Under the pieces are notes generated by a model. That model was not told the origin of the DNA. It searched no databases and worked only from the letters and a program-made list of their open reading frames with translations. The translations under genes and the position numbers were made by a program. Shown one piece after another: positions 27,869 through 30,271 of a stretch of 64,000 nt of DNA. The stretch is from a virus. How positions within the stretch are numbered: position 1 is the first letter of the stretch; each line of letters starts with the position of its first letter. The stretch lies in the IMG/VR virus record IMGVR_UViG_3300020204_000007, positions 105,060-169,059 of that record; one strand, given 5' to 3'.

Positions 27869-27894
27869 TATCGGAGTTTTGCAATCTAACTTAA
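27869..27894 (-). promoter_or_regulatory. sigma-28-type promoter overlapping dUTPase stop
   Basis: TTAAGTTAGATTGCAAAACTCCGATA on the minus strand. Confidence 0.75.
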
Positions 27895-28352
27895 CGTCCC
27901 GAACTACCAAATCCGCCTTGACCGCGATCATCCTTTGGTTTAATAAGGCTTTCATCTACTTGGTGCAAATAAAATTTAGAACTGAACGGATTAGGAATGA
28001 GTTGTGCTACTCTGTCCAAATGATTAATTTCTATTGGTTCATTTGAGTTATTTACAATAACAACAGAAAGCACGCCTGTATAATTATTATCAATGGTGCG
28101 ACAACAAACATCTAGTCCTTGCACGCCCATGCTAGAACGAACATCCCAAATCCAAACAGTTTCGTCTGGGAAAATACATCTAGTGCCAGTAGAAAGTTTA
28201 AGAACTTGTTTTGGAGAAATTTGTATTGGCGTTTCTGCACCAAACGTATCAACTAAATCTACATGAAAATCAAAACCGCCGTCTTGAGCGCGTTTTTTGA
28301 ATGGCATTTTAGATGTTGATTTTACATAAATATAAACGCAATCACTGTTCAC
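27891..28352 (-). CDS. dut: trimeric dUTPase
   Basis: GFD, RSS, TIDxxYTG, DRVAQL, RGxGGFGSSG. Confidence 0.9.
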   Translation of the reverse strand: MNSDCVYIYVKSTSKMPFKKRAQDGGFDFHVDLVDTFGAETPIQISPKQVLKLSTGTRCIFPDETVWIWDVRSSMGVQGLDVCCRTIDNNYTGVLSVVIVNNSNEPIEINHLDRVAQLIPNPFSSKFYLHQVDESLIKPKDDRGQGGFGSSGR

Positions 28353-28941
28353 AAACCCACTCCCAAATCTGCTTTGCTACTTCTTCTGGTACATCATTAT
28401 TGCTATTAGTGACCAATATATGTTTGATATTAAATCGTTCATTAAATGCAAAAAAATCACGGCGACCATCTTCCCAGACTTTAAGTCGGTATGGCTCATT
28501 TATATCTTGAAAATCAAATGATTTTCGACGTCTAATCCTCTCCGTCAGATCTTGGAATGGTGCATCTAAATACACGGCAAGATCTGTGCGCGGAACAATA
28601 GAAGCTTGGTACCCCTCTGGGAGACCATGCACAAGATTATAAGTTAAAAATGAAGAATTACCGCGATAATAGATCACGTAATCAGGATTACTATTTTGTT
28701 TTTGCCATTCGTATTCATTTAGTTTGTAAAGATGCCATGCGGCATTAAATCGTTCTGCATTAGAAATTTCCGAAGAACCTAATGTGCGACGTAATTCTAC
28801 AGAATAATCATTATTTGGAATGATTTTAGTTGTATAAATTACATCAACTTTTAGGTTACGCTGTTTTGTCTGCTCAACCATAAGATCGAGTATTGTGTCT
28901 TTACCAGAACCATCAGGGCCGAGCAGACAAATTGTTTTCAA
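28342..28941 (-). CDS. thymidylate-kinase-like dNMP kinase
   Basis: LGPDGSGKDT P-loop; DLAVYLD..RIxxR. Confidence 0.75.
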   Translation of the reverse strand: MKTICLLGPDGSGKDTILDLMVEQTKQRNLKVDVIYTTKIIPNNDYSVELRRTLGSSEISNAERFNAAWHLYKLNEYEWQKQNSNPDYVIYYRGNSSFLTYNLVHGLPEGYQASIVPRTDLAVYLDAPFQDLTERIRRRKSFDFQDINEPYRLKVWEDGRRDFFAFNERFNIKHILVTNSNNDVPEEVAKQIWEWVCEQ

Positions 28942-29720
28942 AACGCCACCTTTTGATGTTGTGTAACATAGTTCTCGAACATTTTAGGCCATTCTGTTTT
29001 TAGCCATTCTTTATGTACTTGACGAATAGTTTCTGAATTTGAAATTGTTAAATTGCCGTTGTCATACAATGCACAATTATCTTCAATACTACGCCAACCA
29101 ATAATCATGCGAACAAGTCCATCTTCTCGAGCTGTTCCATCGCTCTCCAGTTTATCTACACTATGGTGGCATCTAAAGTTATCGAATATAAGCAGATCGC
29201 CCGCTTTGGCTGTGATTACAGTTGATTCGTCGTCTAAATGTACGCGAGTTCCGCCATTTACTGTGTTATTCAGTACTGTAAGAACTGCAACTTTATTAGG
29301 TCTTATTGCGCGTTTAATGTTTAGATCTTCACCCTCTACACTAAACTCTAAAAACTCGCCGTCAAAATGTTTTGCAACAGGTTTACTGTCACCTTTATAC
29401 ATCTGAATGTTAAAAAGCACTCTACTTGTTTTAGGTAAATCAAGCATTTCATAAAGTTTTAGCGTCAAAATAGAAATTGGCCTGCTAACGTCTGCGACTT
29501 GATCTAAGCTAAGAGCAGGCAGACCCGATTGATTTTCTGGACAAAAAATAAAAGCGTAACTGGCTCTATTGTCGGAAATATCTGCAAAATAAGCTGCATG
29601 GTTTTGAAGGTTAAGAACATTATAGAATCGTCCAATAAGTCGCTTGGTGTCTTTAATAATTCGCTCACGTCCAAGTGCATCGTCATAATAATCCTCGTAT
29701 AATCTAAAGAATTCACTCAT
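28938..29720 (-). CDS. 2OG-Fe(II) dioxygenase
   Basis: HFD ... GGT ... GDLLIFDN..HHSV ... R. Confidence 0.75.
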   Translation of the reverse strand: MSEFFRLYEDYYDDALGRERIIKDTKRLIGRFYNVLNLQNHAAYFADISDNRASYAFIFCPENQSGLPALSLDQVADVSRPISILTLKLYEMLDLPKTSRVLFNIQMYKGDSKPVAKHFDGEFLEFSVEGEDLNIKRAIRPNKVAVLTVLNNTVNGGTRVHLDDESTVITAKAGDLLIFDNFRCHHSVDKLESDGTAREDGLVRMIIGWRSIEDNCALYDNGNLTISNSETIRQVHKEWLKTEWPKMFENYVTQHQKVAF

Positions 29721-30271
29721 ATAAGACCAACCTTTCTTAGCACATAATTTGGAGTTGTCTCTACTACCGTAACAAAATTCTTGCTTCTTGCTTGCAACCA
29801 CTCCTTCATTTCACGATGCATTTTTAGAACTTCGTCAAAATCTTCCCATCTGCCACTACCTTTATATCTTTCGGCATAAACTTCTGGAGTAATATCTAAA
29901 AATACATCAACAATTTCACAATTATATTGTTTTTCTAATTGTCGTTCCCATTCTATAACGCATGGTTCTAGGTGATTAAATAAATCTTTTCCGTAATATG
30001 TAGAAAACCATGCACAGAGTTTTGGCGTGCTATCACAAAACACAGCATCATAATTTGCTTTTATGCAATTCACTAACAGTTGCGATTGATTTCCTGCAAT
30101 CCATAATTGATCAATGGGTGTTGGCCGATATTCTGCTCGTTGTGCATGGTCTTTAATAAATTCCCAACAATAACCAACGTTCTTTCCAAGATACCCCATC
30201 GAAGAATAACAAGCTGTTGCAAGACTACTTTTGCCAGAACCTGGTGCGCCATAGAATGCAATTATTTTCAT
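29717..30271 (-). CDS. P-loop nucleotide kinase (AAA_28/NadR-like)
   Basis: YGAPGSGKSS; CDS motif. Confidence 0.75.
   Translation of the reverse strand: MKIIAFYGAPGSGKSSLATACYSSMGYLGKNVGYCWEFIKDHAQRAEYRPTPIDQLWIAGNQSQLLVNCIKANYDAVFCDSTPKLCAWFSTYYGKDLFNHLEPCVIEWERQLEKQYNCEIVDVFLDITPEVYAERYKGSGRWEDFDEVLKMHREMKEWLQARSKNFVTVVETTPNYVLRKVGLI

Follow-up and report, generated by a model that had tools for sequence, protein, structure and literature searches.

A kinase-coupled 2-oxoglutarate dioxygenase family of uncultured phages as a candidate for the oxidation of free pyrimidine nucleotides

A virus record of 169,059 bp (IMG/VR record IMGVR_UViG_3300020204_000007, rated 100% complete) carries, in its final 64 kb ("the window" hereafter means this whole stretch of 64,000 nucleotides), an operon in which a gene for a putative 2-oxoglutarate (2OG)/Fe(II) dioxygenase lies between two P-loop kinase genes, kinA and kinB, with a dUTPase gene at the end. 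Sequence comparison places this dioxygenase in an undescribed and unannotated AlkB-like 2OG oxygenase family of its own, which is small and found mostly in phage-type gene contexts, and its recurring partners in phages are phosphoryl-transfer enzymes and enzymes of the pyrimidine deoxynucleoside triphosphate (dNTP) pool, in several unrelated contexts. Its motifs and its predicted structure make it very probable that the protein is catalytically active as a 2OG/Fe(II) dioxygenase. The explanation towards which we lean, tentatively, is that it oxidizes a free pyrimidine nucleoside or nucleotide in conjunction with kinA, as part of a pre-replicative route to which, in this lineage, kinB and the dUTPase contribute the remaining steps.

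Organization of the operon

An earlier note on this DNA had described four overlapping, co-oriented genes, and this description holds throughout: the genes run on the minus strand from 30271 to 27891 in the order kinA–dioxygenase–kinB–dUTPase (Table 1), and they overlap at all three junctions. The overlap is ATGA between kinA and the dioxygenase gene, TTGA, preceded by the Shine-Dalgarno sequence AAGGTGG, between the dioxygenase gene and kinB, and 11 nt long between kinB and the dUTPase gene, and Shine-Dalgarno-like purine runs lie ahead of every start in the operon. Together, they make up a single operon with translational coupling.

The dioxygenase family and its predicted active site

The earlier note had also recognized an HxD..H..R dioxygenase of 260 aa, and its relatives bear this out. 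All homologues share the ATG start that gives this length (MSE), which leaves a longer GTG frame reaching to 29801 without support, and that frame was discarded. Fifteen relatives came from a word-indexed search. Among 1.84 billion representative proteins, searched exhaustively with a profile, the family amounts to just 128 clusters, and a metagenome scan with a 22-sequence alignment led to only 4 loci. Residue conservation was assessed over 66 homologues, reaching down to about 21% identity to the window protein, in all of which Y108, H118, D120, G157, N181, H186, R204 and R210 are invariant. The HxD…H iron triad and the basic residue of 2OG/Fe(II) enzymes are thus present (H118, D120, H186, R204, R210), and by analogy R204 and R210 may bind the C5 carboxylate of 2OG. 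The whole N-x-Q-x-Y, HxD, H and Rx5R motif is kept in 12 of the 12 closer phage members.

This family has largely escaped annotation. The dioxygenase has no match at normal thresholds in Pfam, PHROGs or NCBIfam, and tblastn searches of 50,697 phage records with either the dioxygenase or kinB returned no match. Its best Pfam match, 2OG-FeII_Oxy_3 (PF13640), stays below the cut-off (17.8 against 27 bits), and 11 of the 66 members match the same model at E 6.6e-4 or weaker; individual members have sub-threshold matches to TauD, 2OG-FeII_Oxy_3, WelO5 and PhyH. A profile search of PDB sequences gave marginal matches of the TauD/clavaminate-synthase type (E ≥ 0.011) around the GDLLIFDN…H segment. 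PADLOC assigned a generic "2OG" domain model to the dioxygenase (E 5e-6) and a weak VakA match to kinB, and its output held nothing pointing to a defence system.

The AlphaFold (AF2) model of the dioxygenase (pLDDT 91.4, pTM 0.89) is predicted as a double-stranded β-helix, and matches in the ESM Atlas agree on this fold. Foldseek returned more than 500 PDB matches at E < 1e-3, every one of them a 2OG oxygenase, with prolyl hydroxylases first (E 1e-8 to 1e-6, TM about 0.45-0.5). In the Foldseek-independent VIA comparison, the Z scores of the top 50 matches fall smoothly from 13.0 to 9.9 across many subfamilies: ALKBH6 scores 13.0, Dictyostelium PhyA 12.9, PHD2 12.7 and ALKBH5 12.1, with the AlkB homologues ALKBH7 (11.7), AlkB (11.3) and ALKBH3 (10.8) further down. 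Fold searches of BFVD and the ESM Atlas gave no closer subfamily (TM at most 0.57).

AlkB-family enzymes oxidize nucleic-acid bases, and an Rx5R pair with a preceding N-x-Y is a hallmark of AlkB homologues, whereas the prolyl hydroxylase domain (PHD) enzymes use a single arginine. Our dioxygenase shares with the AlkB family (E. coli AlkB, ALKBH5/6) the double-stranded β-helix fold and the order and spacing of the active site, that is, N..Y, HxD(x)E/D, H and, on the next strand, Rx5R. After the second histidine, the family has R204-MIIGW-R210 where AlkB has R204-YNLTF-R210, and hhalign pairs N104/Y108/H118/D120/E122/H186 with N120/Y122/H131/D133/D135/H187 of AlkB in an alignment that is not significant. 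It differs from AlkB in having N-x-Q-x-Y for N-x-Y (two extra residues), in its own conserved N-terminal segment and C-terminal helices, and in its pairing with a small-molecule kinase. The window protein has no match to the AlkB model of Pfam, 2OG-FeII_Oxy_2, and its 66 relatives, which match 16 families between them, do not match this model either. Because the profile test against AlkB failed, we do not claim membership in that family; on present sequence comparisons, the likeness is a resemblance.

Two other groups of 2OG oxygenases deserve comparison. The prolyl-4-hydroxylases (PHD2, PhyA and the Pseudomonas enzyme, P4H) provide the top Foldseek matches and, with Z scores of 12.9-12.4, are tied with ALKBH6, but the TM scores are just about 0.45-0.5 and the context of the dioxygenase is nucleotide metabolism. 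The phage TET/JBP 5mYOX enzymes are, like the present one, Fe/2OG enzymes of phages and are used in DNA hypermodification, but they belong to Tet_JBP and act on DNA after replication (PMC8256090, PMC13229309), while the dioxygenase described here is linked to kinases of the nucleoside/nucleotide type, phosphatases and dUTPase. Tet_JBP (PF12851) is matched neither by the window protein nor by its 66 relatives.

Conservation of the kinase–dioxygenase pair

The strongest evidence in our analysis is the conservation of the gene neighbourhood, a check that the earlier note had proposed and that came out in its favour. The whole cassette is present in close relatives of the window (L003, L004 and L006, 73% identity) and again in L010 and L011, whose four proteins are 33-48% identical to those of the window; since the cassette recurs at this distance, the arrangement is not a chance juxtaposition. 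Beyond the window lineage (which includes L003), kinA lies directly upstream of the dioxygenase gene in six more lineages (L009, L010, L011, L033, L034 and the P0018 contig). The dioxygenases of the lineages with this pairing are 36-48% identical to one another, which argues that the pair is old.

The pair occurs without kinB or dUTPase in L009, the P0018 contig, L033 and L034. For instance, in the 34.5-kb P0018 contig, the gene upstream of the dioxygenase, a putative kinA, encodes 178 aa and has, like kinA of L009, a faint nSTAND3 match alone; in L033, a 39-kb contig from a Nostoc assembly, MazG and a thymidylate kinase (TMPK) gene lie close by; and in L034 (81 kb), a PTP-type phosphatase gene directly follows the dioxygenase gene. 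kinB is kept beside the dioxygenase in L003, L010 and L011 only, and a dUTPase gene is also found downstream of dioxygenase homologues in L008, L010, L011 and L012. kinA and the dioxygenase thus make up the conserved core, which certain lineages extend with kinB and the dUTPase.

A tighter sub-clade of dioxygenases (51-65% identical), found in L005, L007, L008, L012 and L013, lacks kinA. In L008, the order is NUDIX … MazZ-like … HAD phosphatase–dioxygenase–x–x–Asp-type thymidylate synthase (TS) homologue–x–x–dUTPase, and in L012 it is HAD–dioxygenase–x–dUTPase. In L005 and L007, a NAMPT gene follows the dioxygenase gene at a distance of 3-5 kb, and in L005 a NUDIX gene comes before NAMPT. In L028, a phage member with 28% identity, the dioxygenase precedes dCMP deaminase and MazZ-like genes. 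Eukaryote-like members also exist, namely P0048 (428 aa) and P0035 (EukProt Pyxidicula), one of which has an F-box-like N-terminus.

The two kinases and the dUTPase

What the earlier note called a P-loop kinase at the head of the operon is one, and its relationships can now be refined. kinA matches AAA_28 (PF13521) with 38.6 bits, above the cut-off of 27, and its AF2 model (pLDDT 88) is closest to the ribosylnicotinamide kinase (RNK) domain of NadR, with Z scores of 16.2 and 15.8 (at Z 16.2, the root-mean-square deviation is 2.7 Å over 166 residues), followed by thymidylate kinases (Z 14.4-13.8) and deoxynucleoside kinases (dNK; Z 13.7-12.9). Foldseek places the Aquifex TMPK, Drosophila dNK and human deoxycytidine kinase (dCK) on top. 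By its predicted fold, kinA is a small-molecule nucleoside or nucleotide kinase of the NadR-RNK/TMPK/dNK type. Its only relatives in cultured phages are distant (25-27% identity); they carry the label thymidylate kinase or hypothetical protein and lie near genes for dCMP deaminase and ribonucleotide reductase. A search of phages SPO1, M6, ViI, PaMx11 and PhiW-14 with the kinA profile gave no match at E ≤ 1, in a set that holds no positive control, and thus revealed no kinship of kinA to known 5-hmdU DNA kinases or to the dNMP kinases of these phages. The predicted complex of the dioxygenase with kinA scored 0.00, a value obtained without controls that says nothing either way.

The "dNMP kinase" label given to kinB stands in part. 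The protein is thymidylate-kinase-like in its match to phrog_761 ("thymidylate kinase", 5.7e-13), but its 24.9 bits against Thymidylate_kin of Pfam (PF02223) fall below the cut-off of 27, its 25.6 bits against TIGR00041 (E 8e-6) compare with a cut-off of 83, and it has YRG at the place of the DRY/DRH motif of TMPK. We therefore describe it as a putative TMPK-like nucleoside monophosphate kinase and not as a confirmed TMPK. The dUTPase is assigned more readily, with 58.1 bits against PF00692 (cut-off 22), a match to phrog_135 (8e-22) and the motifs RSS, IDNNY, RVAQ and RGQGGFGSSG; its motif 3 opens with arginine and not with glycine.

Hypermodification genes elsewhere in the genomes

The earlier note had mentioned an Asp-type TS homologue, which lies outside the operon, and this label is correct: the homologue has Asp at the position of ThyA Asn177, as in the dCMP hydroxymethylase of the T4 type, and it is possible, going by this residue, that it supplies a 5-substituted dCMP. 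We compared four viral records with the dioxygenase, namely the genome of the window (G000) and G001, G002 and G003. The single TS homologue is Asp-type in G000, G001 and G002, while Asn is found at this position in the TS of G003 and in all five known 5-hydroxymethyldeoxyuridine (5-hmdU) phages tested (SPO1, M6, ViI, PaMx11 and PhiW-14). G000 thus has no recognizable dUMP hydroxymethylase (an Asn-type TS), the enzyme that supplies 5-hmdUMP in a 5-hmdU system.

The window genome nevertheless encodes a protein with the helical domain of 5-hmdU DNA kinases (HMUDK_hel), and the presence of this protein does not fit a genome whose only TS is Asp-type. Its gene overlaps that of a second oxygenase (L015:2206-3700, which is 79205-80699 of the genome and lies outside the window), for which hhalign found no relationship to the dioxygenase family profile. 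The two may form a pair acting on DNA, with a thymine dioxygenase and its kinase helper. HMUDK_hel was found in 3 of the 4 records (G000, G001 and G003), the exception being the 78%-complete G002; the background, from a tblastn search with one HMUDK_hel protein, is 503 of the 50,697 phage records, or about 1%. G001 (IMGVR_UViG_3300036766_000194), a complete jumbo phage of 299,875 bp, has three HMUDK_hel genes (L016, L018 and L019), one of them about 6 kb from the dioxygenase gene; its TS is Asp-type only, and the genome has no match to Tet_JBP. This gene set does not account for a source of 5-hmdU in G001, whose kinases may instead have a different substrate. A further cluster in the window genome, at L014:176-4477, includes a match to amino acid:DNA transferase (ADDT) at E 0.002, below the cut-off; it is far from the operon, as is HMUDK_hel.

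Across these four records, the sequences suggest that some phages with the dioxygenase have genes for processing 5-hmdU and no recognizable dUMP hydroxymethylase. This would leave room for a thymine hydroxylase at the nucleotide level or for the deamination of 5-hm-dCMP. Because the HMUDK_hel gene and the second oxygenase are present separately, chemistry derived from thymine is at least as likely as chemistry derived from cytosine.

A possible pre-replicative pathway and its alternatives

In all the phage base-modification pathways that we found described, either TS homologues bring in the new chemistry on mononucleotides, or TET/JBP dioxygenases, kinases and transferases do so on DNA (PMC8989533, PMC8256090, PMC13229309), and we found no report in the literature of a nucleotide-level 2OG dioxygenase in phages. 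The parts of the SPO1-type pathway, for example, are dUMP hydroxymethylase, dNMP kinase, dTTPase/dUTPase and dCMP deaminase (PMC8989533). Pre-replicative pathways such as those of T4 (gp42/gp1/gp56) and SPO1 (PMC8989533) resemble the present genome in having a TS homologue, a dNMP kinase, an enzyme of the dUTPase type and a dCMP deaminase in one genome; they differ in that the known ones have neither a dioxygenase nor a second, NadR/dNK-like kinase, and in that their new C5 group comes from the folate-dependent TS homologue.

The nucleotide-modification pathway that the earlier note had proposed for the operon is upheld in so far as the dioxygenase, by motif and model, is very probably active and is coupled to a kinase-fold protein among enzymes of pyrimidine deoxynucleotides; that it acts on a free nucleoside or nucleotide, on which one, and in what order the steps follow are points that we infer. 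In the pathway we favour, kinA would phosphorylate a pyrimidine (deoxy)nucleoside or nucleotide, and kinA and the dioxygenase would act on one and the same small phosphorylatable molecule, with the dioxygenase oxidizing a substituent of its base. The most plausible reaction would be the oxidation of the C5-methyl or C5-hydroxymethyl group of a deoxynucleotide derived from thymine or cytosine, for instance of thymidine or dTMP to 5-hydroxymethyl-dU(MP), or of 5-methyl- or 5-hydroxymethyl-dCMP to a more oxidized form, although this particular version is doubtful; the oxidative removal of an alkyl group would be less likely still. In this lineage, kinB would then convert the monophosphate to the diphosphate, the host NDP kinase would finish the charging, the dUTPase would keep dUTP out of the pool while supplying dUMP, and the phage would either incorporate the product into its modified DNA or exclude it from there. 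Precedents for such chemistry are the fungal thymine-7-hydroxylase and the pyrimidine deoxynucleoside 2'-hydroxylase, which are 2OG dioxygenases acting on a free pyrimidine base or nucleoside. These belong to catabolic salvage and are not phage enzymes, and we saw no specific structural or sequence kinship of the dioxygenase to either of them.

Several observations weigh against this pathway. The fold matches are flat across subfamilies (Z from 13.0 to about 10), so that the fold names no substrate, and the hhalign comparison of the family profile with E. coli AlkB is not significant (probability 0.5%, E 0.12). In the window genome, the second oxygenase beside HMUDK_hel could make 5-hydroxymethyluracil on DNA, and in G003 an Asn-type TS is encoded beside HMUDK_hel, so that the dioxygenase is not needed there for 5-hmdUMP. 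kinA is absent from G001 and G002, and also from L005, L007 and L013, in which the dioxygenase gene lies directly upstream of a UvrD helicase gene. A distant bacterial member of the family sits among methyltransferase and MFS genes, and a eukaryote-like one is fused to an F-box-like N-terminal region. Finally, genes of nucleotide metabolism lie together in large phages in any case, so that their adjacency is weaker evidence of a shared function.

The serious rival to the proposed pathway, less probable in our view but well worth considering, is that the dioxygenase acts on polymeric DNA or RNA, in AlkB-like repair or demethylation or as a post-replicative base hydroxylase, and that its adjacency to the kinase reflects general gene clustering. 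The AlkB-like N..Y/HxD/H/Rx5R signature and the many AlkB homologues among the top structures agree with this, as do the UvrD helicase just mentioned, a RecG gene near the dioxygenase in L033 and the gyrase/topoisomerase genes near it in L009 and the P0018 contig; moreover, the phage base dioxygenases characterized so far all act on DNA (PMC8256090, PMC13229309). Against it, the adjoining and often overlapping partner in seven lineages is a kinase of the small-molecule type and not a DNA-binding protein, loci without the kinase have a HAD phosphatase in the same position, and no member matches 2OG-FeII_Oxy_2 or Tet_JBP. It is also conceivable, if unlikely, that the operon cleans the nucleotide pool, the dioxygenase dealkylating damaged or host-methylated deoxynucleotides from the breakdown of host DNA, the kinases re-charging them and the dUTPase removing dUTP. 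For E. coli AlkB, 1-methyl-dAMP suffices as a substrate, which together with the AlkB-like active-site signature speaks for this function, as does the recurrence of house-cleaning neighbours (dUTPase, MazG, MazZ-like dNTP diphosphohydrolase, NUDIX and HAD phosphatase). The same neighbours, however, also characterize pathways in which nucleotides are modified before replication (PMC8989533), the enrichment of the family in HMUDK_hel phages points to modification, and a dedicated operon with two kinases seems heavy for a minor contaminant of the pool.

Two further explanations appear improbable. The dioxygenase could be a protein hydroxylase of the prolyl-4-hydroxylase/PHD type acting on a host or phage protein, with the kinases unrelated to it, given that the top Foldseek matches are Dictyostelium PhyA (E 1.2e-8), PHD2 and P4H of Pseudomonas, whose substrate is EF-Tu, and that one eukaryote-like homologue carries the F-box-like N-terminus. 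The modest TM scores and the Z scores tied with those of AlkB homologues count against this, the Rx5R pair is, to our knowledge, not a PHD feature, and such an activity offers no place for the pairing with a kinase or for the nucleotide context. Slightest of all is the chance that kinA and the dioxygenase serve in nicotinamide riboside/NAD metabolism, for instance to counter defences that deplete NAD. The closeness of the kinA model to the ribosylnicotinamide kinase domain of NadR, its best structural match (Z 16.2), the AAA_28 match of kinA and the proximity of NAMPT to the dioxygenase in L005 and L007 would suit such a role, and NAMPT is found in the records without kinA (G001 and G002) and not in those with it (G000 and G003). 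That distribution comes from four records only, one of them 42% complete, and in G002 NAMPT is about 180 kb from the dioxygenase; thymidylate kinases score almost level with NadR, such a role does not accommodate kinB, the dUTPase, the TS homologue or dCMP deaminase, and we know of no role for a dioxygenase in NAD salvage.

Implications

If the proposed pathway is correct, base modification would have a third point of entry, through a dioxygenase that acts on free nucleosides or nucleotides and is coupled to a kinase of its own, and biotechnology would gain a new supply of non-canonical dNTPs. The lack of a dUMP hydroxymethylase in some phages that have genes for processing 5-hmdU might then also be accounted for. 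In its boldest form, which we put forward as little more than a conjecture, this would be the first known phage enzyme to oxidize a free pyrimidine deoxynucleoside or nucleotide before replication, with kinA and kinB charging the product, and the missing source of the modified base in G000 and G001. Even if the substrate is DNA or a damaged nucleotide, a new AlkB-like family of 128 clusters with a conserved kinase partner would have been added to the 2OG oxygenases. As an experimental target the family is compact and easy to test; none of the 50,697 phage records that we searched contained a member.

Genomic setting

At the nucleotide level (megablast), the locus has no match among the 50,697 phage records. 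A structural-looking protein of 948 aa, initially a candidate "terminase", has as its sole match a protein of Myxococcus phage Mx1 (34% identity) that is annotated as tail sheath, and for this reason its use for classification was dropped. Mx1 alone at 34% identity and the missing nucleotide match point to a deep-branching uncultured phage.

Table 1. Positions of the operon and of other features discussed (window positions unless marked as genome positions).
Feature	Position	Strand	Description
kinA	29717..30271	-	P-loop kinase, 184 aa; P-loop GAPGSGKS; first operon gene
Dioxygenase	28938..29720	-	260 aa; ATG start; N104-x-Q-x-Y108 … H118-x-D120 … H186 … R204-x5-R210
kinB	28342..28941	-	199 aa; TTG start; P-loop GPDGSGKD; Arg-rich lid RIRRRK
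dUTPase	27891..28352	-	Trimeric-type, 153 aa; GTG start; last operon gene
TS homologue	44103..44810	+	PF00303, 82.9 bits; genome's only copy; catalytic Cys kept; outside operon
HMUDK_hel protein	genome 79776-80699		307 aa; 87 bits; 54 kb from operon
Second oxygenase	genome 79205-79858		217 aa; 2OG-FeII_Oxy_3, 64.5 bits; weak Tet_JBP, genome's only such signal
Cluster L014:176-4477	genome 35175-39476		Outside window; weak amidoligase, low-molecular-weight phosphatase, dCMP deaminase (26.9 bits), unassigned 212-aa P-loop protein, weak ADDT
Promoter-like motif TAAAGTTAGA-N10-CCGATA	window	both	Repeated; 29 matches against 3.3 expected
Motif example sites	2109, 3248, 30368	+	TAAAGTTAGA-N10-CCGATA
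Variant motif copy	27869..27894	-	One mismatch; at 3' end/stop of dUTPase gene; marks start of next transcription unit
AAA/MoxR-like ATPase	30399-31541	+	phrog_1297; divergent neighbouring unit
SLT lytic transglycosylase	31617-32318	+	Divergent neighbouring unit
574-aa protein	32347-34071	+	Weak VWA-like DUF2201 match; divergent neighbouring unit

A promoter-like motif, TAAAGTTAGA-N10-CCGATA, is repeated in the window, and its exact, zero-mismatch copies are nearly all on the plus strand within the first 21 kb. The copy at 30368 would serve the divergent AAA-ATPase gene, and no copy was found upstream of kinA on the minus strand. Because the motif flanks the unit without interrupting it and none precedes kinA, the four genes would be a transcription unit of their own with a different promoter. 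The ATPase and SLT genes also adjoin the cassette in L003 and L010. In L011, a 90-kb relative, two inserted genes part the ATPase from the cassette; they encode DUF7487 proteins (L011:1107-4077), one of which is weakly Mom-family-like.

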